Below are positions 2,855 through 63,602 of a stretch of DNA of 64,000 nucleotides, one piece after another; the stretch's first letter is position 1; each line of letters starts with the position of its first letter. This DNA is from an uncultured bacterium (GTDB lineage: Bacteria > Babelota > Babeliae > Babelales > RVW-14), in NCBI GenBank assembly GCA_963759805.1, contig CAVXAT010000002.1:5532-69531 (forward strand). Reading direction: 5' to 3'. Made by a program: the position numbers and the translations under genes. The notes below the pieces were generated by a model. It made no database searches. It was not told the origin of the DNA and saw only the letters and a list, made by a program, of their open reading frames with translations.

Positions 2855-3244
2855 TTATTTCTTAGCCAGAATCTTTTTGTTTGGCACGACATTTGCAGGT
2901 TTTCTTGGTCCCTTACGAGTACGAGCGTTTGTTTTTGTACGCTGTCCTCTGACGGGCAAGCTCTTCTTATGACGAAGCCCTCTGTAGGAACCAATCTCTT
3001 GAAGTCGCTTGATATTCATTGTAATCTCTTTTCTCAACTCGCCTTCAATCTTGAAAAATTGAGTTATATACTTCTGAATAGCTGCAACTTGTTCATGAGT
3101 CAAGTCCTTGATTCTTACATCCGGACTTACTTTTATATCTGCCAAAATTTGTCGTGCTCTAGGTAACCCTATACCAAACAGGTAGGTTAACCCTATTTCA
3201 ACACGTTTTTCGTTAGGTAAAACAACACCTTCTATTCGAGCCAT
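2855..3244 (-). CDS. rpsM: 30S ribosomal protein S13
   Basis: [27 protein letters not shown]-terminus and basic C-terminal tail. Confidence 0.95.
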
Positions 3245-3281
3245 TAAAATTTACCTCTCAGAATAAACCTAAATTAATTTT

Positions 3282-3395
3282 TTAACCTTGTCGCTGTTTG
3301 TGCTTTGCAATTTTGCAAATTATACGCACAACGCCATTACGTTTAATAACCTTACAATTCGAACAAATTTTCTTAACGGATGTTCTTACTTTCAT
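3282..3395 (-). CDS. rpmJ: 50S ribosomal protein L36 (Zn-binding C+ form)
   Basis: Below the ORF-track size cut-off. Hand translation gives [37 protein letters not shown] (37 aa, C-x2-C...C-x4-H). It sits between infA and rpsM, as expected. Confidence 0.9.
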
Positions 3396-3456
3396 TGCAT
3401 TTTCCCAAAACTTACTTTGAAACCTAAAAATTCACTCTATTCTTAATTACTTACAA

Positions 3457-3681
3457 TTACTTACAGCGGGAAACTATTCTACCCTTCATCAAATCGTAAG
3501 GAGACAATTCGACTACAACCCGATCACCAGGTAAAAGCTTAATGTAATGCATACGCATCTTTCCGGACACATGTGCAAGGACCATATGGTCCCCACCGCT
3601 TAATTTGACCTGGAACATCGCGTTAGGTAAGGCCTTTTCAACCACACCTTCCATTACAATAACATCTTCTTTCTTTGCCAT
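3457..3681 (-). CDS. infA: Translation initiation factor IF-1
   Basis: 74-aa S1-like protein: [21 protein letters not shown]...[22 protein letters not shown]. Confidence 0.95.
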
Positions 3682-3702
3682 ATGAATCCGTTTCCCAAAT
3701 CT

Positions 3703-4449
3703 TTAAATTCTTGTTAACACTTCTGAGCCATTCTTAACAACCAAAACAGTGTCTTCAACATGTGCTGATAGCCCACCATCTGCAGTTTTAGCCGTCCAAC
3801 CATCCTGTAAAATTCGAACTTCATGACTTCGCTCTGAAATCATCGGCTCAATCGCTAACGTCATTCCTTCTCTCAAAACTGTATCATCTACTGTTTTTCT
3901 GTAATTAGGAATCTCAGGCTCTTCATGCAAATCCTTTCCAATTCCATGCCCTGCAAAAGCTCTAATTACGGAAAAACCATCAGTTTCAACTTTATCTTGA
4001 ATACATGCTGAAATTTCAGAGATCTTAACACCCGGCGCAACCTTTGCAATTGCAGCGTCCAAAGCGATCTGAGCTGTTTGCGCCATCTTCCTTGCAGTTA
4101 CACAAACATTTCCCACAAAAAAGAACCTTGTAATATCAGCACAGTAACTTTTATAAGACCCTACAACGTCTATCTTAACAAAATCTCCAGATTTTAAAAT
4201 AAGATCTTTTGATGGAATCCCATGAACTATGACGTCATTAAGCGAAATACACGTCGCATGCTTATAACCGGCATATCCCTTGCAGAAAGGAACAAGCCCG
4301 GATTTACGCATTTTTTCTTCAATTATTCTGTCCAAATCCCAGGTACTAATTCCAGCCCTAACCTCAGGTTGTATATCATGTAAAATGGTTGCCAGTCGTT
4401 TACCGGCGATTCTCATCTTCTCAATTGCAATCTTATTTTTTATCAACAT
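3703..4449 (-). CDS. map: Methionine aminopeptidase, type I
   Basis: Metal-ligand blocks VIVHGIPS, DVVGSYKSYCADITRFF, FAGHGIGKDLHEEPEIPNY, LAIEPMI and AHVEDTV. Confidence 0.93.
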   Translation of the reverse strand: MLIKNKIAIEKMRIAGKRLATILHDIQPEVRAGISTWDLDRIIEEKMRKSGLVPFCKGYAGYKHATCISLNDVIVHGIPSKDLILKSGDFVKIDVVGSYKSYCADITRFFFVGNVCVTARKMAQTAQIALDAAIAKVAPGVKISEISACIQDKVETDGFSVIRAFAGHGIGKDLHEEPEIPNYRKTVDDTVLREGMTLAIEPMISERSHEVRILQDGWTAKTADGGLSAHVEDTVLVVKNGSEVLTRI

Positions 4450-52981: not shown

Positions 52982-53006
52982 AGAATAATAAAGTTAGGAG
53001 GTTATC

Positions 53007-53993
53007 ATGAAATTCAAAAATGTTTTTTCACTCATTTTAATTTTAAACGCTGCAAACTTATTTGCATATGACCAACAAACATATAAAGAACTGCTTGCTG
53101 GTGGCAAAAGGTTTGCAAATGCAGACTTGTCAAAAGCAAAAATCGAAAATATGGATTTATCAGATGTTACTTTTGTGAATGTAAATTTAACTGATGCATG
53201 CTTTCATAATTCGATGCTTACAAATGTCACATTTGATTCATGTAATTTATCGGGTTCTATATTTTATGATATGGTATTTAATAATTCCAAAATTTTAAAC
53301 AAATCTAATTTGGCACATTCTATTTTTGAAAAGGTAATTTTTGATAGCTCAGAAATAAATAATTCATCAATGGCTCATGTCAAATTGTCAGAAACTGATC
53401 TTGTGGCAGCTAGAATTTACAATGTTGACATGTACAACACCAAGCTTGAGTCTGTAAATTTTTCTGCGTGTACCCTGGAGCATATAAATTTCAGGGCAGC
53501 CAAACTCGAATTGGTAAGAATCTACGAAACAACTCAGATTGGTACTGATCTGATCTTTGATCAAGCAACTCTTTCACAGTGCTGTTTCCTAGGCCAAAAG
53601 GAACGCAGTTCAGTTATAGGGGGCGACTTTTTTGGCACGACTATTATGCATAGCTACTTTGTAAATCTAAATTTTGATAACTGTACACGCTTAGATCAAG
53701 TTGGCGATGCAACAAAAAGTTTATTCGACAATATTTCCTCTATTAGTCCAAATGACCTAAGAATATTTGCTGAAAGGCTGAAATTTAAAGAGGCAAAAGT
53801 CAATGGCGAATGGACTAAAGACAAAGACTATTGGAGTAAATTTGAATCTCATTATTGCAAGCAATTTTTTGCGGCATTGTGGCCATCAGTAGCTTATTTA
53901 GGTACTTTCGCCTTTGTTGGATTGGTTTGTCCAGCTGCTGCACCTATAGCAGCATCTGCAGTATCTGGAGGAGTATCTGCAGTAGTTAACTAA
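53007..53993 (+). CDS. Signal-peptide pentapeptide-repeat protein with a C-terminal hydrophobic tail (paralogue of the C-terminal part of 49391-52981)
   Basis: FANADLSKAKIENMDLSDVTFVNVNLTDACFHNSMLTNVTFDSCNLSGSIF... Shares FDNI(S/V)S..P.DL with the USP protein. The tail is FFAALWPSVAYLGTFAFVGLVCPAAAPIAASAVSGGVSAVVN. Confidence 0.8.
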   Translation: MKFKNVFSLILILNAANLFAYDQQTYKELLAGGKRFANADLSKAKIENMDLSDVTFVNVNLTDACFHNSMLTNVTFDSCNLSGSIFYDMVFNNSKILNKSNLAHSIFEKVIFDSSEINNSSMAHVKLSETDLVAARIYNVDMYNTKLESVNFSACTLEHINFRAAKLELVRIYETTQIGTDLIFDQATLSQCCFLGQKERSSVIGGDFFGTTIMHSYFVNLNFDNCTRLDQVGDATKSLFDNISSISPNDLRIFAERLKFKEAKVNGEWTKDKDYWSKFESHYCKQFFAALWPSVAYLGTFAFVGLVCPAAAPIAASAVSGGVSAVVN

Positions 53994-54033
53994 CTATATT
54001 AAATTTAGAATACTGAAAAATTTGGAGGTTATC

Positions 54034-57000
54034 ATGAAATTTAAAAATATTTTGATTTATCTTTTTGCTGTAGGGCAGGTTGGTTTTGCATGGGGAATGG
54101 GAAGAACACAATTTGCTAGTTCGTGTACAGAGCTCTGGTTTCAGGGAAGCAGTATACAGGACCAGGCACGTCCCACAACCTCTAGTGAATGGGGTATCAG
54201 AGTTAATTTACCTTCACGCAGCAGGTACACGAGCGAATCCTCATATTCACGGTCTAGCGGTCCTTTGAGAAAATGTTTTGCTAATTCACCAACGAAGGCT
54301 GTATTTAATTTACCTAATCTTGTGAGTTCTCATCAGTATAAAACTCTTGATAAGGCATTTAGTGCACTACTAAATTCAGACGCTACTGTGAAAGCTGTAC
54401 AAAATGACCCGAATGTTCTTGTACAATTGTATTCCGCATTGGCACAACTTCATGAGCAAATGGCTTTTCAGGATAAAAAGAACACTTTGGTTACAGATGG
54501 TACACACTGGTTTTTACAAAAACCAAATGGAAAACGGCTCGATTTAACATCAAAAGTGTCCAATGCCTCTTATGCAATAAACCAATTTGTCTATGAAATT
54601 AAAGATGAATTAGAAAGCAAAGGAATCCCTTTTGATCTTGTTTTGCGCAGCCATCGCGAATGTGTTGGTTTTTCTAAAGATGGCAAAAAAGTAATTCATC
54701 GATACTCTGGTCTCCCCGGATCCGGGCAGGAATATGTTCTTGATTTGATTGTATCCACGGAAGATGATGGATCCAAAAAGATTACTCACAAGATTAAGAA
54801 TAAAAATAAAGTAAATGATAAAAATTTACGAAAACCAAAAGATGTACAACCGCCAGCTCCCACAATTCCACATGCTCCAACTCCCACTCCAGATATCCTA
54901 TACAAGGGCGTAATTTTATCCCAACAGCCTCTCTTGATTGATACAAGTGTTGATGCACGTTGTAAAGGCACAATAAAAACTTACATGGACTCTCCTAAAT
55001 TTGCCGAAAAGGCATATTCTCTTTTTAATTCCAAAGATGCATTTAGGGGAATCCGTTTTACAGAAAATGATTTTAATTTAACAGAGAGGAGTCCTGATGG
55101 AACACTTGTCTATATTGCAGGAGCTTTAGTGGAACACGAAGATGGCACGAAAGAAGCTGGCGCTATTAGAATTGTTGTAAAACCTAATCCAGAAATGCCT
55201 GAAATAAGAGAGATACATTCTTATGTTGGAGAATTAAATAAAGATGTATCCAATGGGTTGGATGTTAATCCGCTCACTCAGGACCGACCCGGCAAAAAGG
55301 ACGATGGCGTTTCTTCTGATCCTAAAATCTCTCCCACACCTAAACACATCTTTGATATGTCAAAGCTTTTAGATTCTGATCTTAAGCAGATTGACCTACA
55401 CCATTATATGTTGAATCAATCGACAAAACAATTTGTCAGATTTAACTCTCACATTGACAGCTTACAACAGGGTAGAGGAACACAAGCCGCAGATGGTTCT
55501 ACTACAAAACCCCAGCAAGGTCCTAATACTGGTGCAGCTGGTGATAGAAAAGACAAAATAGCTCCCGAAAACGAATATACAGAAGCAGGTCAAACGCATA
55601 AAAACCTTGCGGGTCAGCATCAACTTGAAACTCAAGATCAAGATGATGAATTGCCCAAACAAGAATCCTCTCAGGCAGGGGCAGCTAATGTTGACGCCAA
55701 AGCTGCCGAAGAGGCAGCTGCAGCTAAAGCCCAAGCTGAAGCCGAAGAAACAGCCGCCAAAGCAGCTAAAGAAGAAGCCGACGCTATGGCAAAAAAAGCA
55801 GTCGATAAAAAAATAGCATCTGAAGCCTCAGCAAAGAAAACCAGAAGATCTAAAGCCATCCTAGCTCAACAAAACAAAGATATAACCCAAAAATCTCTAC
55901 ACCAAGCTGAACAAATTGAAGCATTGGTAAATAAGGGGTTCACTAAAGATCTCGCAAAAATGAAAGTATGCGCACCCAGAGAATACAGTGCATTTGTTAA
56001 ATTGAGCGATAAACAGATTTTGCAACGTGAAGAGCTATCCACAGCTAAAACAGATGTAGGGGGCACAGCTAAGCCATCCCAGCCAGTTGAAATGTCACAA
56101 CCAATCAGACTCACACTTGCAGATCGTTTTCAACAAGCAACTTCTGTTGATTCAGGAACTCAAGGAAAACAACCAGCGCTTAATTTTTCGATAGAAGATC
56201 GAAACCGTGGATTCAAAGAGCGCATAGCACGCATGCAACAACACTCAACAAGCAGATTATCAGAACAACCAAAAGCACCTGTAATACCAGAAGTACCGGT
56301 AAAACCAGTTGAAACGCCAACTCAGGCACCACAACCGCAACAACCAACATTTATAGAAAGAATTAGAGAGCGTGCTGCTGAAGTTATTGAAATGGCCAAA
56401 ATACCAGCCCTGGAAACACTCAAAACCGTTGTGACATCTGCCACAGATAATCTTTTAAAATACTTTTTTACTTCCCCTCCCACCATGGACGGAAAACATT
56501 TCTTTGGTGAAGGCCCAGAAGAGACAAGATATACTCCATATTTGGATAGGCCACTACTAAATTTGCAAAGTAAATTGCATCCAGACATGGAAATGCAAGA
56601 CTCATCACAAAATCTAGCAACTGCAGCTGCTTCTTCTGGCGAACAGGAATATCCGATTATGTTCGATCCCACAGCTCGCCCAGTAAAAATAACGCACACT
56701 GGATATTCTTCATCTAATCCTACGGAAGTAGAAAAACCCTTTGTAATGCCTCACGATGTCGGCATTGAAGGACCAACTGCAACAACACAAACTGGTCACT
56801 TAAACCTGGAACAATTTAAACGCCACACAGACTACACGGCAAAGAAAAGTGCAGAATTGGCAGAGATTACTCGTGATAACCCAACGCTGCAAAATACCTG
56901 CAAATTTGTGGATGCTCTGAATAGATTTGCTAACTTATATGCAGAGGCTGATGATGGGGTTGGAGCAACCGCTTTGGGCAAAGCCGCACAAAACACATTG

Positions 57001-58032
57001 CGCAATGCACAAAGGGCTGCGACAGCATTGGGTAGAGGTGCAATTCGAGGTGCTGAGAAATTTGATCCCAAGGTTATGTTTGTTGCCAATGCAAAACTTG
57101 CAATGTTTGCAATTGGGGAAATTAGCAGGCAAGAAACTGTCGACCAGGCCTTTTTATCTTTCAATCCTGAACAAGCTGAGCAGGCGGCTTCGGCACATGC
57201 TCAACATTGCACAGAACAGTATCAAGCATTTTCAACGGCTGCCAAACAAACTCTTGAGCGGTTAAGGAGCATGCCATGGGAAGAAGTGCTTGAAAATGGT
57301 TCTGAGCTTGGTGTTGATCTTGTTATGCAAGGTGTGTTTATTAACGGACTGGGCAAACTTGGTGGAACAGCATTGCAGCGTTTTGCTGCATTAACATCGG
57401 ATTTAAATGAAATTGTCAAAGCTGAAAAAATAGCCGCTGCCACTGGAAAGGCTTCCGCTCAAATTACAGAGCTTGGGCAACAGGTTGCTGTTGTAGGTAA
57501 ACTTACTGAACAAGAGGGATCTGAAGTAGCAGGAAGAGTTGTTGGAATTATTAAAGATAATCCCGAGCTTATCCAGAGCGAATTTGGTTTTGTACAAACT
57601 GTAAGAGCTGTATCAAAAATTGAGCAAAAGCCACATTGGGAATCGCTTGCGCTTGACCCTGCCCATGGAAATAAAATAAGTATCAAAAGTATTGAGGAAG
57701 CTTTGGCTGGAATTGCTGCTGAAGAAAAAGGATTTTTACCAGGACCTATTAGGCGCGATCCGAGCGCAGCCGCAGAATTTATTGATACATTAGGAAGAGC
57801 TTGGGATGTTAAAACTCCACTATCACTTGCTCCCAATGGGCAACATGTTTTCAAAATCGACCAGGTATTTAGTAGTATCAAACGAGAACTAGGACTTGGC
57901 GAAAATGTCATCTTGAGTATGATTAAACTTAATAAAGAGGATGCGTTGTCTTTGATTGCAAAATTAAAAACAGAATTGTCAGCAGCTGAGATCGAAAAAA
58001 TTATTACTGTTTTTAGAGAGGACTTATTTTAA
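54034..58032 (+). CDS. Large secreted polymorphic-toxin-like protein (1332 aa) with a variable C-terminal toxin region
   Basis: GGAGGTTATC precedes the ATG. Signal peptide MKFKNILIYLFAVGQVGFAWG. About 900 aa have no family I recognise. The junction segment is duplicated at 58455-58691. The C-terminal ~130 aa carry a D-x7-DVK pattern. Confidence 0.7.
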   Translation: MKFKNILIYLFAVGQVGFAWGMGRTQFASSCTELWFQGSSIQDQARPTTSSEWGIRVNLPSRSRYTSESSYSRSSGPLRKCFANSPTKAVFNLPNLVSSHQYKTLDKAFSALLNSDATVKAVQNDPNVLVQLYSALAQLHEQMAFQDKKNTLVTDGTHWFLQKPNGKRLDLTSKVSNASYAINQFVYEIKDELESKGIPFDLVLRSHRECVGFSKDGKKVIHRYSGLPGSGQEYVLDLIVSTEDDGSKKITHKIKNKNKVNDKNLRKPKDVQPPAPTIPHAPTPTPDILYKGVILSQQPLLIDTSVDARCKGTIKTYMDSPKFAEKAYSLFNSKDAFRGIRFTENDFNLTERSPDGTLVYIAGALVEHEDGTKEAGAIRIVVKPNPEMPEIREIHSYVGELNKDVSNGLDVNPLTQDRPGKKDDGVSSDPKISPTPKHIFDMSKLLDSDLKQIDLHHYMLNQSTKQFVRFNSHIDSLQQGRGTQAADGSTTKPQQGPNTGAAGDRKDKIAPENEYTEAGQTHKNLAGQHQLETQDQDDELPKQESSQAGAANVDAKAAEEAAAAKAQAEAEETAAKAAKEEADAMAKKAVDKKIASEASAKKTRRSKAILAQQNKDITQKSLHQAEQIEALVNKGFTKDLAKMKVCAPREYSAFVKLSDKQILQREELSTAKTDVGGTAKPSQPVEMSQPIRLTLADRFQQATSVDSGTQGKQPALNFSIEDRNRGFKERIARMQQHSTSRLSEQPKAPVIPEVPVKPVETPTQAPQPQQPTFIERIRERAAEVIEMAKIPALETLKTVVTSATDNLLKYFFTSPPTMDGKHFFGEGPEETRYTPYLDRPLLNLQSKLHPDMEMQDSSQNLATAAASSGEQEYPIMFDPTARPVKITHTGYSSSNPTEVEKPFVMPHDVGIEGPTATTQTGHLNLEQFKRHTDYTAKKSAELAEITRDNPTLQNTCKFVDALNRFANLYAEADDGVGATALGKAAQNTLRNAQRAATALGRGAIRGAEKFDPKVMFVANAKLAMFAIGEISRQETVDQAFLSFNPEQAEQAASAHAQHCTEQYQAFSTAAKQTLERLRSMPWEEVLENGSELGVDLVMQGVFINGLGKLGGTALQRFAALTSDLNEIVKAEKIAAATGKASAQITELGQQVAVVGKLTEQEGSEVAGRVVGIIKDNPELIQSEFGFVQTVRAVSKIEQKPHWESLALDPAHGNKISIKSIEEALAGIAAEEKGFLPGPIRRDPSAAAEFIDTLGRAWDVKTPLSLAPNGQHVFKIDQVFSSIKRELGLGENVILSMIKLNKEDALSLIAKLKTELSAAEIEKIITVFREDLF

Positions 58033-58033
58033 T

Positions 58034-58372
58034 ATGGCAAACCTGATACTGAAAAATGACAAAGTTATATGGAAGTGTTCCAACTCCATGCTGGCTCTTA
58101 TTTATGAAACAATTATGGGAATTATGAATGATAAAAAAATGAATAAAGAGTCCGCAGTTTGCAAATTTGTGGAAAAATTAAATCAGGATATCTATGGAGA
58201 TGGATGTATTTCTATTGATCTGGATGATTATCTAAAAAACAATGACGATATACTTGTTTTTGCAAAGTTATTTAAGGAATCAATAGAACAGCTTAAGAAA
58301 AAATTTGAATGGCAAGAAGAACTATATAGCCACACATTAAAATTATATCAACAGCTGACATGCCCTGATTAA
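58034..58372 (+). CDS. Candidate immunity protein for the 54034-58032 toxin (112 aa)
   Basis: It starts 2 nt after the toxin stop, is small and cytoplasmic-looking, and is followed by a terminator. The assignment is positional only. Confidence 0.5.
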   Translation: MANLILKNDKVIWKCSNSMLALIYETIMGIMNDKKMNKESAVCKFVEKLNQDIYGDGCISIDLDDYLKNNDDILVFAKLFKESIEQLKKKFEWQEELYSHTLKLYQQLTCPD

Positions 58373-58406
58373 TTATCATAGAGCATAATGTTTTTGTCAT
58401 TTTCAT

Positions 58407-58441
58407 GCCTCGGCATGTATAAAAGTGCTGGGGCTTTTTTG
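58407..58441 (+). terminator. Intrinsic terminator after the toxin-immunity pair
   Basis: GCCUCGGCA pairs with UGCUGGGGC (9 bp including 2 G-U pairs), with a 10-nt loop, then TTTTTT. Confidence 0.65.
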
Positions 58442-58461
58442 CTGCACTCGCTACCGTTGGC

Positions 58462-59688
58462 ATGGAAGGACCAACTGCAACAACGCAGACTGGTCGCTTA
58501 AACCTGGAACAATTTAAACTCCACACAGACTACACGGCAAAGAAAAGTGCAGAATTGGCAGAAATTACTCGTGATAACCCAACGCTGCAAAATGCCTGCA
58601 AATTTGTGGATGCTCTCAACAGATTTGCTAACTTGTACGCAGAGGCTGATGATGGGGTTGGAGCAAACGCTTTGGGCAAAGCCGCACGACAAACAGTGCA
58701 TTATGCCGAAAATATAACAAAAATATTTGGCGGTCACATTCAAGAAGCTCTTCTTGGCGTTTCAGATTCAGGCCTGGATCACCTTGACTTTGGAACAGAA
58801 GCTGCGTCTCATCCACAAGAAACTTTAGTAAATATGGCTAATGGCCTCAAAGAGCTTACAATTTTTACTGCAAAAATTATGGCAATAGGAGAGATGTCTC
58901 TAGATAATTCAGAATTAGCACTTGATGCATTTAATAGAGAAATTAGGCCAACGGTGCAACCATTGTACGATAGACTCGAAGCTATGACGGGACCGGAAAG
59001 AACCAGATTTATAACACGTACATTCTGTAATCTTTTTTTGGGGAAATATCTATCGATTGGCTTGCAAGCGGCATCCCTTGGTATATCTGTACCAAACATT
59101 CAGCAATTTAGGTTAGCAACTGCGGCAGCAAAAGAGTTTTATGGATCTTTGATTAATGAAGCAGAAATAGTAAGTAGAATTCCAAATTTTGCGAATTTGC
59201 CACAAAATATGCAAACTCTTTTATCTCCTCTTATATCGATGACTGAGAATCCTGGTAAGTTGGTTGAATTAGGAATCAACAAAGGCCAAGAATTTGCGAG
59301 AAGGATTGCAATAGCACTTGGGCAAAATCCAGAGTTAGTCGTTACAGAAGGCTCATTTGATGGTGCTGTGGCAAGACTTGTGGGTGATTTCGAAAAAGAA
59401 GGTGCGGCGGCAGCTGCAGCCGATGATTTGGCAAGTTTTAGAAAAAGTGAGCGTGGAGCCTCTTCAGGTACTGCTGTTCAAGCTGAGCAGAGTTATGCTA
59501 AAATGTTTGAGCAGAGAATTAGCAAGATGCCAGTGGGTGAAAGAGTTGCAGCGGTGACAGAAGAGGCTCAAAGAATAGCTGCGGCTAGAGGATGGGAAAA
59601 AATGGGTCAAATATCTAGAAGAAATGGGGAAAGAATTGTTTACAAAGATAAAAATGCATCGAAACTTTATTCTGTGGATATATACTGA
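58462..59688 (+). pseudogene. Orphan toxin cassette (5' part): no signal peptide or delivery region, begins inside the conserved junction, and is truncated by an IS insertion at 59680/59681
   Basis: The first 76 aa are nearly identical to residues ~911-986 of the main toxin. No Shine-Dalgarno is visible. The reading frame runs into the IS left end after ...NASKLYSVD. Confidence 0.8.
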
Positions 59689-59770
59689 CCCCATAAAACT
59701 AGACAGTGCAACTTGAGAAAATAAGTACTTTAAAAATATTAGTTATAACAATGAGCCCGGGGGGCATTAA

Positions 59771-60046
59771 ATGAGTAACAAAGTAAGCAGAACCCACAGC
59801 AACAAATTTAAACTAAAAGTTGCATTGGCAGCTATAAAGGCTGATAGGCCAATAGCTGAATTATGCCAAGAATTTGCATTAGCGACAAGTCAAATTTATG
59901 CATGGAAAAAACGGCTTGAAGATCGAGGCATTGAAGTTTTTTCGAGTGAAAAAATGGCTGCAAAAAAAAGTTTAGATGTTGAAAAGTTTCATGTGATTAT
60001 AGGCAAGCTTATTGTAGAACGTGAGTCATTATTGCGGGCGCTTTAA
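59771..60046 (+). CDS. IS3-family OrfA-like HTH protein (extra or remnant copy)
   Basis: KFKLKVALAAIKADRPIAELCQEFALATSQIYAWKKRLE, a transposase_8-type HTH. It is a diverged paralogue of the next ORF, and no OrfB follows it. Confidence 0.7.
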   Translation: MSNKVSRTHSNKFKLKVALAAIKADRPIAELCQEFALATSQIYAWKKRLEDRGIEVFSSEKMAAKKSLDVEKFHVIIGKLIVERESLLRAL

Positions 60047-60147
60047 TGCAATAAACGCAAATGGATAAACTGTGTACAACGACAATAATAATGAATTAGC
60101 ATGAGAATGTTAAATCTAAAAATTTGCTTTACAAGAAAGGCATTCTC

Positions 60148-60426
60148 ATGAGTGATGACACGAAAAAAAGTCATGATGACAAGCTTAAACTTAAGGTGGC
60201 TTTAGCTATGATAAAGGCCGACAAATCAGTTGATACCATCTGTAGAGAATTTAATATTTCAACATGCCAAGCATATGCATGGAAGCAACACCTAGAAGAG
60301 CATGGCAACGAACTTTTTGCAGACAAAAGAAAAGTTAAAAAAGAAGAAACATATGACAAGATTTTGGCAGACCTTGAACAAGTAAAGGAAGAGCGCAATT
60401 TTTTAGTACAAGTGCTCAGTCGCTAG
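60148..60426 (+). CDS. IS3-family transposase OrfA
   Basis: MSDDTKKSHDDKLKLKVALAMIKADKSVDTICREFNISTCQAYAWKQHLE, then a leucine-zipper-like tail. Start set at the ATG; the track starts at an upstream TTG. Confidence 0.8.
   Translation: MSDDTKKSHDDKLKLKVALAMIKADKSVDTICREFNISTCQAYAWKQHLEEHGNELFADKRKVKKEETYDKILADLEQVKEERNFLVQVLSR
60399..60405 (+). promoter_or_regulatory. Candidate -1 programmed ribosomal frameshift heptamer (T TTT TTA) joining OrfA to OrfB
   Basis: In the OrfA frame the codons are AAT TTT TTA. The -1 frame is open from 60378 and runs into OrfB (…FFSTSAQSLDIQVRKQWIEHN…). An OrfAB fusion is the usual IS3 arrangement. Confidence 0.6.
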
Positions 60427-60434
60427 ATATCCAA

Positions 60435-61355
60435 GTGCGCAAGCAATGGATTGAGCACAACAACAAATTGAACTTGTCCAGAAAATGCGATCTGCTCGGT
60501 ATAAATCGAAGTAGCCTTTATTACAAGCCAAAGAAGGCCAACAACCAAGACGAGGTGATTATGGATGAGATACGCAACGAATATGAGAGACATCCATTTT
60601 ATGGATATCGAAAAATACACGAAGTTCTTATCGAAAAAAGCTTTAACCACAACATTAAAAGAACACAGCGGCTAATGACGTTGACAGGTCTTTGTGCAGT
60701 TGCCCCTTATAAAAAAACTAGCATTCCAAACAAGGAACACAAGGTGTACAAATATCTTTTAAGAGGATTACGAGTTTGCCGCCCAAACCAAGTCTGGAAA
60801 ACAGATATCACATACGTAAAAATAAGAGGTGGGTTTGTTTATTTGGTTTGTCTTATCGATGTTTTTAGTCGCAAGATTATGGGATGGGCATTGTCACCAT
60901 ATCTCGATACAGACGTTTGTCTTGAAGCATTGGAAATGGCTCTCGTACTCGGTAAGCCTGAGATTTTAAATAGTGATCAAGGGTGCCAGTTTACAAGTGA
61001 AAGATGGGTTGCTCGTTTAGAAAAAGAAGGTATCAAAATTAGTATGGATGGAATAGGTCGATGGGCAGACAACATCATTATTGAACGATTCTGGCGAACT
61101 ATTAAATATGAAGCACTGTGTTTTTATGTTCTTGAAAACATTGCTGAGACGCGATTAATTATAAAAAACTATATCAACTTTTATAATAGAGAACGCTTTC
61201 ACCAATCACTCGAATATAAAAAACCAGATGAAGTTTACTATGGAGCTATCATTGCAGTAGACCAATCTGATTTTACTTTCGAATCATTGGCTTTTGTATG
61301 TAATAGCAAAATCATCGTTCAACAAAATAAATCAATGGGGATACAAATGGCCTGA
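60435..61355 (+). CDS. IS3-family transposase OrfB (DDE/rve catalytic domain)
   Basis: WKTDITYV (D), LNSDQGCQFTS (D), NIIIERFWRTIKYE (E) and YNRERFHQSL. Confidence 0.9.
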   Translation: MRKQWIEHNNKLNLSRKCDLLGINRSSLYYKPKKANNQDEVIMDEIRNEYERHPFYGYRKIHEVLIEKSFNHNIKRTQRLMTLTGLCAVAPYKKTSIPNKEHKVYKYLLRGLRVCRPNQVWKTDITYVKIRGGFVYLVCLIDVFSRKIMGWALSPYLDTDVCLEALEMALVLGKPEILNSDQGCQFTSERWVARLEKEGIKISMDGIGRWADNIIIERFWRTIKYEALCFYVLENIAETRLIIKNYINFYNRERFHQSLEYKKPDEVYYGAIIAVDQSDFTFESLAFVCNSKIIVQQNKSMGIQMA

Positions 61356-61409
61356 TAAAAATTCTGAAATATAAGTTAAAAATTTGTCTTGACAATGGGG
61401 GTCACTATA

Positions 61410-61534
61410 ATACACAGCATGGACGATTTGAAATATTAAATGAAGAAGGAAAACATTTGGGAGAAGTTGATTTTGATTTCAATTTTACAAAAGAACGTGA
61501 TGCATCAGGTAGCCACGATTTAAATACGCGATAA
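61410..61534 (+). pseudogene. Orphan toxin cassette (3' part): C-terminal half of a colicin-E3-like cytotoxic rRNase domain
   Basis: In-frame continuation TQHGRFEILNEEGKHLGEVDFDFNFTKERDASGSHDLNTR*. Compare colicin E3, recalled from memory: WDSQHGELEGYRASDGQHLGSFDPKTG. Confidence 0.75.
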
Positions 61535-61549
61535 GAAAGGTTTAAAATA

Positions 61550-62095
61550 ATGGTAGACATTGTTTCTAAAACAATCGATTATTTTTACAAACAAAAAAAT
61601 TATAATGCCTTTAAGGAATGTTGTAAAAATCCATTGAATTTGTTTCTGGAGTTACAGCAATATATAGATAGAAACGGATTAAATTCGTCTGGAGGACCCG
61701 ATAATAAGTACTACCCGGCCAGAGATTGGCACATACATTTTAATGATTATAAGAAAGGTGAATTTGAAATTTCTTATACAACAGTTCTTAATATTTCAAA
61801 ACTTGCACCATTATATTATGTTCAACATGAATTTTCAGTTAAAGATAAAGATGATGATAGAATGACTCCTGTCCTAGATGGTTTTAGTAATCACCCATAT
61901 ACAAAGAAACAGTTTGTTTTGCATGATAAAATTTCATCTGTTTTAAATAAAAAAGGGTATCATGAACTCGAGTATGTTGACATAAGTGAGGCGGTAGAAG
62001 GTTTTAAAATGCCAGAGGGGGTAACTATCTTTGGGCCTAATGTTACAGTTGAAGATTTATTGTTTGCAGATTTATTTGATGTACGTAATAAGTAG
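61550..62095 (+). CDS. Candidate immunity protein for the orphan E3-like toxin (181 aa)
   Basis: It starts 15 nt after the reconstructed toxin stop, has no signal peptide, and is followed by a terminator. The assignment is positional only. Confidence 0.45.
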   Translation: MVDIVSKTIDYFYKQKNYNAFKECCKNPLNLFLELQQYIDRNGLNSSGGPDNKYYPARDWHIHFNDYKKGEFEISYTTVLNISKLAPLYYVQHEFSVKDKDDDRMTPVLDGFSNHPYTKKQFVLHDKISSVLNKKGYHELEYVDISEAVEGFKMPEGVTIFGPNVTVEDLLFADLFDVRNK

Positions 62096-62222: not shown

Positions 62223-63602
62223 TTAGTTTCTAGCGTTTTCTCGAGATAGTCTTAATGCCTCATCTCGTGCATTCGCAAACTCTGTTCTTGCTTCTGCTAA
62301 TTTATGAGATATATCAAGCCTATTTGCCTGTAGGATTGTGGCTTGTTCTTTGAATTTGTTCTCCTCCATTCTTCTATCAAATTCGCGACTAACAATTTGC
62401 TGAATTCTTTGTGCTTCTTTTTCAGCATAAAATTGCCTTCCCAGCCATGAATCTCGTGGAGGGTGCATCCTTTCATCAAGAGGTATCCATGACTCATTTG
62501 CGTGAATGTTTTGCCTAAAAGATACAGCACGTTCTTCCAAGGCTGTGGTTTGTATAGCCGCTTTTATTTGGACCAATTTTCCGTCTAGAACGGAAATCTC
62601 TGATTGTTTTCGATCAGCTTCTTCCCATGCCAACCTGCTGGGATCATTTGCTGGTCTACCTAGTGCTTTTTCTCGCAACTGTGTTTCTTCTGCACGCCTG
62701 TATTCTACCTCTGCCCATTCACAAGCAGCTTCTTCATCTCTAATTTTTTGTAGTCGTGCTTCTTCTGCTTGCCTGCTGGCTTGCTCTTCTTCTAGAATTT
62801 TTCGCTTACGAGCTTCCTCCGCTTCTCTACGAACATGCTCTTCATCTCGGATTTTTTGTAATCGTGCTTCTTCTACTTGCTTGCGCACTCGTTCTTCTTC
62901 TAAGGCCTTTCTTTGAAGAGCTCCCTCAGCCTGCCTATGAGCAGTCTCTTCTTTAAAAAATGCTTCTTTTATTTTGTTAGTCCCATAAAGATCTTTTATC
63001 GACATAATAATGCTTAGCCCCAAAGCAACTCCGTACAATATCTGTTCTGGACTCTTATCTTTACTGATAATTATATTATCAAATAACCGAAATGCGGAAT
63101 TCAATGACTTACACTTTAATCTAAAATCTGCATCTTCAATTGTAGCCCTATCTTTAAGTGAAGCAAATAATGCAGTTAGGCCTTCGATAAATGGAATTAA
63201 TCCCGTGTGAAAAGTTTTAAGAAATCCTTCTAATTTTTTTATATCTTCCGAATTTTGAGTTATATCTTCAGGTTTGTTAAATAAATCAACTAAATGTGTA
63301 ACGAAACGTACTCCATCATAGGCTGCCCAAATATAATCGTACTTATGAAATTCCAATTCTCCATTCTTATTAATTATAGAAAGTACTTCACTTGACAATC
63401 GAAGAACATCTACTGATAAATTCAAAATATGATGGTACTTTTTACTAGATTCGGGGCTTAACTTATTTTTAATTGCAAGCGTCGGAATTCTTAAAAGTGC
63501 AACAATTGATTCAACATTGTTTAGATCTATTTCAGAAAATAAATTGCTTGAATATGTGCTTGTGCTGAAAAAAAGAATAAGCATAACTATTTTTTTAAGC
63601 AT
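62223..63602 (-). CDS. Secreted coiled-coil protein with internal Glu/Arg-rich repeats, function unknown
   Basis: Signal peptide MLKKIVMLILFFSTSTYSS. The repeated segment is EEARLQKIRDEEHVRREAEEARKRKILEEEQASRQAEEARLQKIRDEE. Confidence 0.6.
   Translation of the reverse strand: MLKKIVMLILFFSTSTYSSNLFSEIDLNNVESIVALLRIPTLAIKNKLSPESSKKYHHILNLSVDVLRLSSEVLSIINKNGELEFHKYDYIWAAYDGVRFVTHLVDLFNKPEDITQNSEDIKKLEGFLKTFHTGLIPFIEGLTALFASLKDRATIEDADFRLKCKSLNSAFRLFDNIIISKDKSPEQILYGVALGLSIIMSIKDLYGTNKIKEAFFKEETAHRQAEGALQRKALEEERVRKQVEEARLQKIRDEEHVRREAEEARKRKILEEEQASRQAEEARLQKIRDEEAACEWAEVEYRRAEETQLREKALGRPANDPSRLAWEEADRKQSEISVLDGKLVQIKAAIQTTALEERAVSFRQNIHANESWIPLDERMHPPRDSWLGRQFYAEKEAQRIQQIVSREFDRRMEENKFKEQATILQANRLDISHKLAEARTEFANARDEALRLSRENARN

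Follow-up and report, generated by a model that had tools for sequence, protein, structure and literature searches.

A direct repeat in a polymorphic-toxin locus of an uncultured Babeliales bacterium: probable record of tip replacement and a switch substrate disarmed by an insertion sequence

Polymorphic toxins that are accompanied by orphan cassettes are textbook systems in Proteobacteria and Firmicutes. In CdiA, a short conserved VENN motif precedes the variable tip, and the orphan CdiA-CT/CdiI modules reportedly retain a stretch of conserved upstream sequence. The Babeliales (Dependentiae) are host-dependent protist parasites with reduced genomes. The locus described in this work belongs to an uncultured member of the Babeliales and lies in a window of 64,000 nucleotides (GenBank assembly GCA_963759805.1, contig CAVXAT010000002.1, positions 5,532 to 69,531 of the forward strand). 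All coordinates without a genome name refer to this window and all features are on its plus strand unless stated otherwise. The locus consists of a predicted main toxin gene (54034-58032), a putative immunity gene (58034-58372), and an orphan toxin cassette that starts at 58462. A direct repeat connects the main gene (copy 1, 56758-57013) to the start of the orphan (copy 2, 58456-58711). We consider it probable that this repeat is the homology block of a Babeliales polymorphic-toxin locus, that it reflects a history of tip replacement, and that it is still present as a substrate for switching that an insertion sequence (IS) has disarmed.

The rhs main gene and the rhs orphan of Salmonella Typhimurium LT2 share 522 bp at 95% identity and have been shown to recombine under selection (PMC3967940). 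A simple deletion at that locus loses the main immunity gene, and a prior duplication has been invoked (PMC3967940). The window locus is similar to the Rhs systems (Koskiniemi et al., 2014) in that a C-terminal fragment without a promoter, which has an immunity gene to itself, lies behind a full-length toxin and its immunity gene. A near-identical block, 232-256 bp at 94-91% identity here, is likewise common to main gene and orphan, and a simple deletion would also cost the main immunity gene. Unlike the Rhs proteins, the window protein exhibits only a Sec-type signal peptide and has no YD/Rhs repeats, PAAR, or type VI secretion system context (no Pfam match). The window orphan is also broken by an IS, and recombination at the window locus is a proposal from comparison.

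Orphan mafB-CT cassettes also accompany the MafB/MafI polymorphic toxins of pathogenic Neisseria (Jamet et al., 2015, PMC4287609). The window protein is similar to MafB in its signal peptide, lineage-specific N-terminal region, variable C-terminal toxin, and adjoining downstream immunity gene, and arrays of orphan CT/immunity cassettes with common upstream homology are another shared feature. It differs from MafB in that it has no DUF1020 N-terminal domain (no Pfam match), no MafA partner was found, and it belongs to another phylum with another lifestyle, that of the host-dependent Babeliales. As in CdiA, a short motif stands ahead of the tip. This motif, NP(E/G/K)x(I/V), is found just before each warhead (57583-57600 in the window) and contains the literal ...TVENNPGLV... 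in one relative (G050). The window orphan too keeps conserved upstream sequence. Unlike CdiA, the window proteins have no TPS domain, FHA repeats, PT-VENN Pfam match, or CdiB partner. The ...YSVD(T/S)QHGRFE...GKHLGEVDF... region of colicin E3 and cloacin DF13 (PF09000) is found in the orphan tip and in its intact orthologue, but here the domain is the tip of a chromosomal toxin with a Sec signal rather than a plasmid colicin, and the window copy is split by an IS. Judged by these sequence features, the locus is a main/orphan arrangement as in Rhs, CdiA, and MafB, yet it is a member of none of these families. Its delivery logic is, by analogy, closest to the Sec-signal MafB class. A literature search found no paper that ties Dependentiae or Babeliales to polymorphic toxins.

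An earlier note on this DNA had reported the repeat and had read it as a possible driver of toxin-domain switching. The repeat is the sole long two-copy direct repeat between 50000 and 64000 (256 nt, 91% identical, start-to-start spacing 1698), and the search of the whole 1.5-Mb assembly using blastn and tblastn identified these two copies only. Its core (56758-56989 and 58456-58687) exhibits 13 mismatches over 232 nt in the ungapped register, which is 94.4% identity, and a decaying edge of 24 nt (56990-57013) follows on the right side. The perfect-match runs between the copies are 42, 30, 28, 23, 22, 20, and 20 nt long. Outside the repeat (left of 56750 and right of ~57020), 30-nt windows drop on both sides to 4-10 matches out of 30, which is the chance level. 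The MAFFT alignment of both regions with their 150-nt flanks also exhibits the same block between unrelated flanks. Both copies are translated in the same frame. Copy 1 encodes the junction block of the main gene (VGIEGPTATTQTG...ALGKAA), and BLASTP of the two C-terminal regions exhibits 81% identity over 90 amino acids (aa) in this block. The coordinates, the roughly one dozen differences, the sharp boundaries, and the encoded peptides that were given in the earlier note all agree with these results. The two outcomes that it had named as fatal to its claim were not found: the core is 94.4% identical between flanks at the chance level, so its identity is well above that of the surrounding gene, and an assembly duplication is disfavoured.

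The repeat might be irrelevant to recombination if it were an assembly artefact, or if it were a conserved protein domain that is kept alike by selection. The assembly is a draft in 21 contigs, and the junction block with its motif (V/I/L)G(M/I)EGPxATT is conserved in several full-length relatives, as these two readings would allow. However, the repeat is not taken for an assembly duplication because the copies carry thirteen fixed differences and unique flanks in a contig of 226 kb, and because the same repeat-plus-orphan layout recurs in the independent assemblies of relatives. Selection on the protein alone cannot give 94% DNA identity, with 8 synonymous changes per ~54 synonymous sites, when the sister orthologue is only ~45% identical at the protein level. 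Both readings were rejected on the 13 differences, the unique flanks, and the high identity at synonymous sites, and we find them barely credible.

The main protein was searched against related genomes and matches were identified in 12 of 41. The full-length protein alignment took in the window genome (G000), G002, G004, G008, and G050. G002 is a Candidatus Babeliales metagenome-assembled genome of a sister species in the same genus as G000, G003 is also of this genus, and G008 is a Candidatus Dependentiae bacterium. The G002 locus is syntenic with the window, with UCH-pentapeptide and pentapeptide genes upstream (52-70% identity) and two conserved neighbours downstream (48% and 56%). It encodes a single toxin of 1180 aa. 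The N-terminal part of this toxin aligns to the main gene up to residue ~1007, and its last ~450 aa match the orphan from end to end and then the tail that follows the IS. The orphan-type C-terminus is fused there in frame to the delivery region at the junction block, and a homologue of the window gene 61550-62095 comes next. Identity to the G002 toxin amounts to 48.5% over 410 aa for the 5' part of the orphan, compared with the C-terminal part of that toxin, and to 64% over 42 aa for the 3' part, compared with its tail. The intact G002 tip scores 31 bits against PF09000 (cut-off 22). This comparison indicates that the orphan was once a complete C-terminus of the E3 type, that 61550-62095 is its partner gene, and that the junction joins different C-termini to the same delivery region. 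The alternative C-terminal domains that the earlier note had proposed to look for at this junction are therefore seen in the sister species. At the level of sequence comparison, it is shown that C-terminal tips have been exchanged at the junction in evolution.

Other relatives exhibit the same components in other combinations. In G003, the start of a contig holds a main-type tip (68% identical to the window tip) and its small ORF (open reading frame; 80%), behind which a different orphan lies, with a repeat of 67 nt at 93% identity. In G004 (L015, G004:C23, 3900-12700, minus strand), a toxin of 1004 aa is followed by six orphan/immunity modules that are 1.0-1.2 kb apart. These modules share 300-nt repeats that are 60-100% identical, and one stretch of 125 nt is 100% identical to the main gene. 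One of the orphans in this six-module array is the main-type tip (52% identical to the window) with its small ORF (50%). The pairs in G003 and G004 show that the main-type warhead and its putative immunity gene travel as a unit. In G050 (L025, G050:C19, 800-10600, minus strand), a four-module orphan array with 300-nt repeats is found. Repeat identity in the arrays of G004 and G050 was also put at 71-100%. Two of its modules seem frameshifted, with short overlapping ORFs (e.g., 3224-3713 and 1802-2219 in that locus), so orphans appear to decay there too by a route other than an IS hit. Among the array tips, one G004 orphan matches EndoU_bacteria at 63.5 bits, and there is also a weak match to DUF4258.

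The start of the junction block (56758-56790) holds the motif that is conserved across the toxin family (relatives L013, L015, L024, and L025). Since G002, G004, and G008 have the Met of this motif inside their full-length genes, the orphan ATG is an ancestral codon and not a new start. The positions at which the orphans start vary between genomes, so recombination has no single fixed site. Three features of polymorphic toxins are found in this family. The N-terminal and pre-toxin regions are shared and the tips are unrelated (PF09000, EndoU_bacteria, weak DUF4258, and unassigned). The small downstream gene co-varies with the tip (main type in G003 and G004, E3 type in G002). The main gene has a homology block in common with the orphan cassettes (in the window, in six copies in G004, in four in G050, and over 67 nt in G003). 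The layout of main toxin, immunity gene, and orphan cassette, with the repeat as the homology block between them, is borne out by the gene order and by these relatives.

The orphan itself is broken. Its 5' part (58462-59680) runs from the junction block through a middle module that we term type B and an NPELVV motif to the start of a ribosomal RNase (rRNase) domain, which ends in ...KLYSVD. The orphan ORF as called (58462-59688, 408 aa) opens exactly with the repeat and ends at 59688 because the IS provides the stop codon. This element (59681-61409, 1729 bp) belongs to the IS3 family, as indicated by its helix-turn-helix (HTH) OrfA, its DDE (rve) OrfB, its imperfect terminal inverted repeats, and a 3-bp target duplication (ATA at 59678-59680 and 61410-61412). 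An extra OrfA-like HTH ORF (59771-60046) precedes the usual OrfA/OrfB pair. Five copies of the element are present in the genome and are 100% identical over 1-1729 (contigs C1, C2, C5, C11, and C15, one of them cut by the contig end), so the element has been active very recently in the 1.5-Mb genome. The 3' part of the orphan (61410-61534; ...TQHGRFEILNEEGKHLGEVDFDF...NTR, stop codon 61532-61534) continues the reading frame of the 5' part if the empty site is restored.

The insertion splits the catalytic motif of the rRNase domain. When the two pieces were searched apart against Pfam, the 3' piece (43 residues) matched PF09000 'Cytotoxic' with an E-value of 0.0098 and 16.7 bits, which is below the 22-bit cut-off because the piece is a fragment, and the 5' piece matched nothing. 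By sequence similarity, the orphan tip is probably a colicin-E3-type rRNase that was once complete. Its putative cognate immunity gene (61550-62095, 181 aa), which had been missed in the earlier note, shares 58.6% identity over 181 aa with the ORF that comes directly after the intact E3-type toxin in G002. The main immunity gene and the orphan are separated by a terminator-like hairpin and T-run (58407-58444). Three promoter-like sites were found in 57900-58600, compared with 3.4 expected from shuffles, and no Shine-Dalgarno sequence is visible before the orphan ATG. The orphan is presumably silent behind the hairpin. Further downstream, the minus-strand gene 62223-63602 contains tandem 54-nt repeats (61-71% identical) at 62705-62920, and a homologue of this gene (56% identity) is also found near the G002 toxin locus.

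The full-length alignment exhibits middle modules of different types in the main protein (type A) and in the orphan (type B). The type A profile was built from the main protein, G008, and G050, and the type B profile from the orphan and G002. The earlier note had proposed graded homology downstream of the repeat and, from it, a shared entry module with swappable warheads. The swappable tips agree with the relatives, but the sharing is limited. Beyond the repeat, BLASTP detected only one more segment, around NPEL (E-value 0.004), and the profile-profile comparison of type A and type B aligned 37 columns ending in NPEL(I/V)..EG (E-value 4.5e-4, probability 33%). The pair KLAMFAIGEIS/KIMAIGEMS, which had been quoted as further homology, was matched by MAFFT without statistical support, and relatedness of the remaining ~190-aa middle parts was not detectable by BLASTP or profile-profile comparison. 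The NPEL stretch is therefore retained, and an entry module shared over the whole middle region is rejected since only ~37 columns around NPEL are detectably similar.

The substitutions between the repeat copies bear on their age. The core differences comprise 8 synonymous and 5 non-synonymous changes (proportion of synonymous differences, pS, 0.149; proportion of non-synonymous differences, pN, 0.028; ratio 0.19), and at least 8 synonymous changes among 13 have a binomial p = 0.0035 under neutrality. This synonymous excess indicates that the copies diverged mainly as translated and selected genes, not while one of them drifted as a silent orphan. The pattern is as would be expected if the two copies come from two functional genes. 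The copies are 94% identical to each other in DNA, and each is ~45-50% identical in protein to G002. Since they are far closer to each other than to G002, they were either brought together long after the species split or homogenised since. At the right edge of the repeat (~codon 990), the orphan continues in G002-like sequence (ARQTVHYAENITKIFG compared with ARYMVKYGQNTAKIFG), and the main gene turns to the type of G008 and G050, with the M(P/S)W(E/Q)E motif of the type A module.

We propose the following history. The resident gene would once have ended with a type B module and a colicin-E3-type rRNase tip, followed by its immunity gene, a state that G002 retains. A unit of 1698 bp that consists of a junction block, type A module, new warhead, immunity gene, and terminator would then have recombined into the resident junction block. 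The incoming tip would have become the expressed end of the toxin, and the old tip with a junction copy and its immunity gene would have been left silent behind the terminator. Later, the IS3 element that is active in G000 would have landed within the catalytic motif of the orphan.

In a different history, the genus ancestor held both cassettes and G002 arose by the predicted deletion, so that the repeat would already have switched in the sister lineage. The G002 gene is collinear with the main N-terminus and the orphan C-terminus joined in the junction block, as such a deletion would leave it, and the main-type tip with its immunity gene is also found in G003 of the same genus, so this tip could be old. 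However, DNA identity between the two G000 copies is 94% (pS 0.15), compared with 38-70% protein identity between the orthologues of G000 and G002. Much greater divergence would be expected of copies older than the split, unless gene conversion had homogenised them repeatedly. The G003 orphan is also different, and its repeat is at a different position. We regard a shared ancestral pair as rather unlikely. Loss of the main-type cassette from G002 by deletion is possible, but insertion in G000 agrees better with a young repeat.

The direct repeat flanks exactly one complete cassette with a terminator at its distal end. On this basis, the repeat-to-repeat unit of 1698 bp might be a self-contained cassette that would leave as a RecA circle and enter junction-bearing toxin genes by a single (Campbell-type) crossover, with the junction motif (V/I/L)G(M/I)EGPxATT serving as an integrase-free attachment site. 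This is a speculative suggestion to which we give little weight. If it were true, Babeliales that co-infect one protist host would share toxin tips.

The spacing of the copies is 3 x 566 nt, so a crossover between them keeps the reading frame. recA is intact in this genome, with an open frame of 369 aa that scores 431.8 bits. Together with the perfect runs of 20-42 nt, these features would permit RecA-dependent recombination. By a crossover, exactly 1698 bp would be lost in frame (or doubled through unequal exchange), and the delivery region would be joined to the orphan. The deletion product would be a protein of 1318 aa that stops at the IS-borne TGA after ...KLYSVDIY and that would not include the QHGxFE...GKHLG half (the His/Glu part) of the rRNase motif. 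Because the IS splits the orphan, the deletion would yield a truncated and presumably dead toxin. Because it also removes the sole intact toxin and its immunity gene, the recombinants would be exposed to their siblings. The earlier note had predicted this deletion and the fusion of the delivery region to the orphan toxin. The in-frame geometry of 1698 bp fits the prediction, but the toxin that would be gained is truncated.

A working switch would draw on an orphan that encodes an intact toxin, active once fused, and the rRNase domain of this orphan is split by the IS at 59681-61409. The locus might all the same be in frequent use at present, with a subpopulation that carries the deletion or an amplification like the evolved Salmonella rhs lines. 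The layout, the in-frame spacing, recA, and the perfect runs would permit it, and the Salmonella rhs locus provides a precedent (PMC3967940). However, the recombinants would gain no toxin from the split warhead, and they would lose the immunity gene 58034-58372 and become sensitive to their siblings. We judge frequent present use to be very unlikely. The toxin-domain switch of the earlier note can thus be kept in part: tips have been exchanged at the junction, as G002 exhibits, and recA is intact, but the orphan offers no ready warhead. The repeat is read here as a real substrate and as the scar of a past tip replacement, not as a working switch in G000.

Several points weigh against this reading. 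Strain-level relatives were found neither in the protein collection nor among the metagenome contigs, and the comparisons reach distant species only (38-70% protein identity). The homologue search with main residues 620-1010 returned only the query and one weak, unrelated protein of 2051 aa, and the search with the orphan yielded nothing beyond the query and a protein nearly identical to that of G002. No metagenome contig exactly matched a 39-mer of the repeat, and a peptide-pattern scan of these contigs identified only contigs equivalent to G002 and G008 (L031 is 99.99% identical to G002). The correctness of the assembly across the repeat is argued from sequence logic. Present-day recombination between the copies would be a prediction from their arrangement, and 232 nt at 94% identity would be a modest recombination substrate. 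The order of events in the tip replacement is a reconstruction, and its direction is drawn from parsimony and the youth of the repeat, which gene conversion between old copies could mimic. The toxicity of the main warhead is deduced only from its domain partners, the warhead has no Pfam family, PDB sequence match, or structural neighbour, and the toxic and immunity functions of both cassettes are putative.

The main toxin gene (54034-58032) starts with a GGAGG ribosome-binding site and ATG and encodes 1332 aa, as supported by its ORF translation and by the alignment with full-length relatives. The protein consists, in order, of a Sec-type signal peptide (MKFKNILIYLFAVGQVGFAWG), a long delivery region, the junction block, the type A middle module, an NPELIQ motif, and the C-terminal warhead. 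The protein including its delivery region has no NCBIfam match and, when searched as a sequence of 1336 aa, no Pfam match at an E-value <= 0.01. The weak match of 2051 aa (P0154, from one metagenome contig) was aligned to residues 571-747 of the delivery region, and only ...LNFSIEDRNRGFKER(I/V)AR(M/I)QQ... and the adjoining low-complexity sequence are common to both. In a delivery domain that cannot otherwise be recognised, this segment may represent a conserved motif. A stretch of 37 nt (52990-53026 and 54017-54053) is 89% identical between the pentapeptide-repeat gene (53007-53993) and the toxin gene and includes the ribosome-binding site, the start codon ATG, and the opening codons (MKFKN...).

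The main warhead (57550-58029) belongs to a widespread family of C-terminal toxin tips with the conserved pattern DPAHG...E...R...AEFID...WDVK, which is represented in the window by DPAHG...AAEFID...WDVK. The phmmer search of 1.84 billion cluster representatives identified 581 of them at an E-value <= 1e-3. In these proteins, which are 100-1381 aa long, it is almost always the outermost C-terminal domain, with a median of 7 aa left behind it, and the N-terminal partners among 49 long members include eCIS_core, PAAR/prePAAR, T7SS_signal, PT-HINT, and PrsW. These types are the usual carriers of polymorphic toxin tips. No Pfam model matched the warhead, and a profile search of PDB sequences found no match. 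The AF2 model on an alignment of 38 sequences has a pLDDT of 95.3 (39 for the single-sequence model), and Foldseek of this model against the PDB found no significant neighbour (best E-value 0.23, TM-score <= 0.38). The warhead is a putative toxin tip with an uncharacterised fold. The motifs AEFID...WDVK would fit a PD-(D/E)xK nuclease, and this assignment stays a motif-level guess because no PDB structure or sequence matched significantly. The putative main immunity gene (58034-58372, 112 aa) starts 1 nt past the toxin stop codon, and its homologues are found directly 3' of the same warhead in G003 (80% identity) and G004 (50%).

The findings in this work describe a known recombination mechanism in a new protein family and a new phylum, with a delivery protein that matches no described family. 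The window documents the life cycle of a toxin cassette, from acquisition through displacement to the orphan position to decay by an IS hit, and whatever activity the repeat might have at present is conjectural. The locus suggests that Babeliales maintain a turnover of toxin tips, and that even these host-dependent bacteria face conflict with kin or competitors, for example during co-infection of one host cell.

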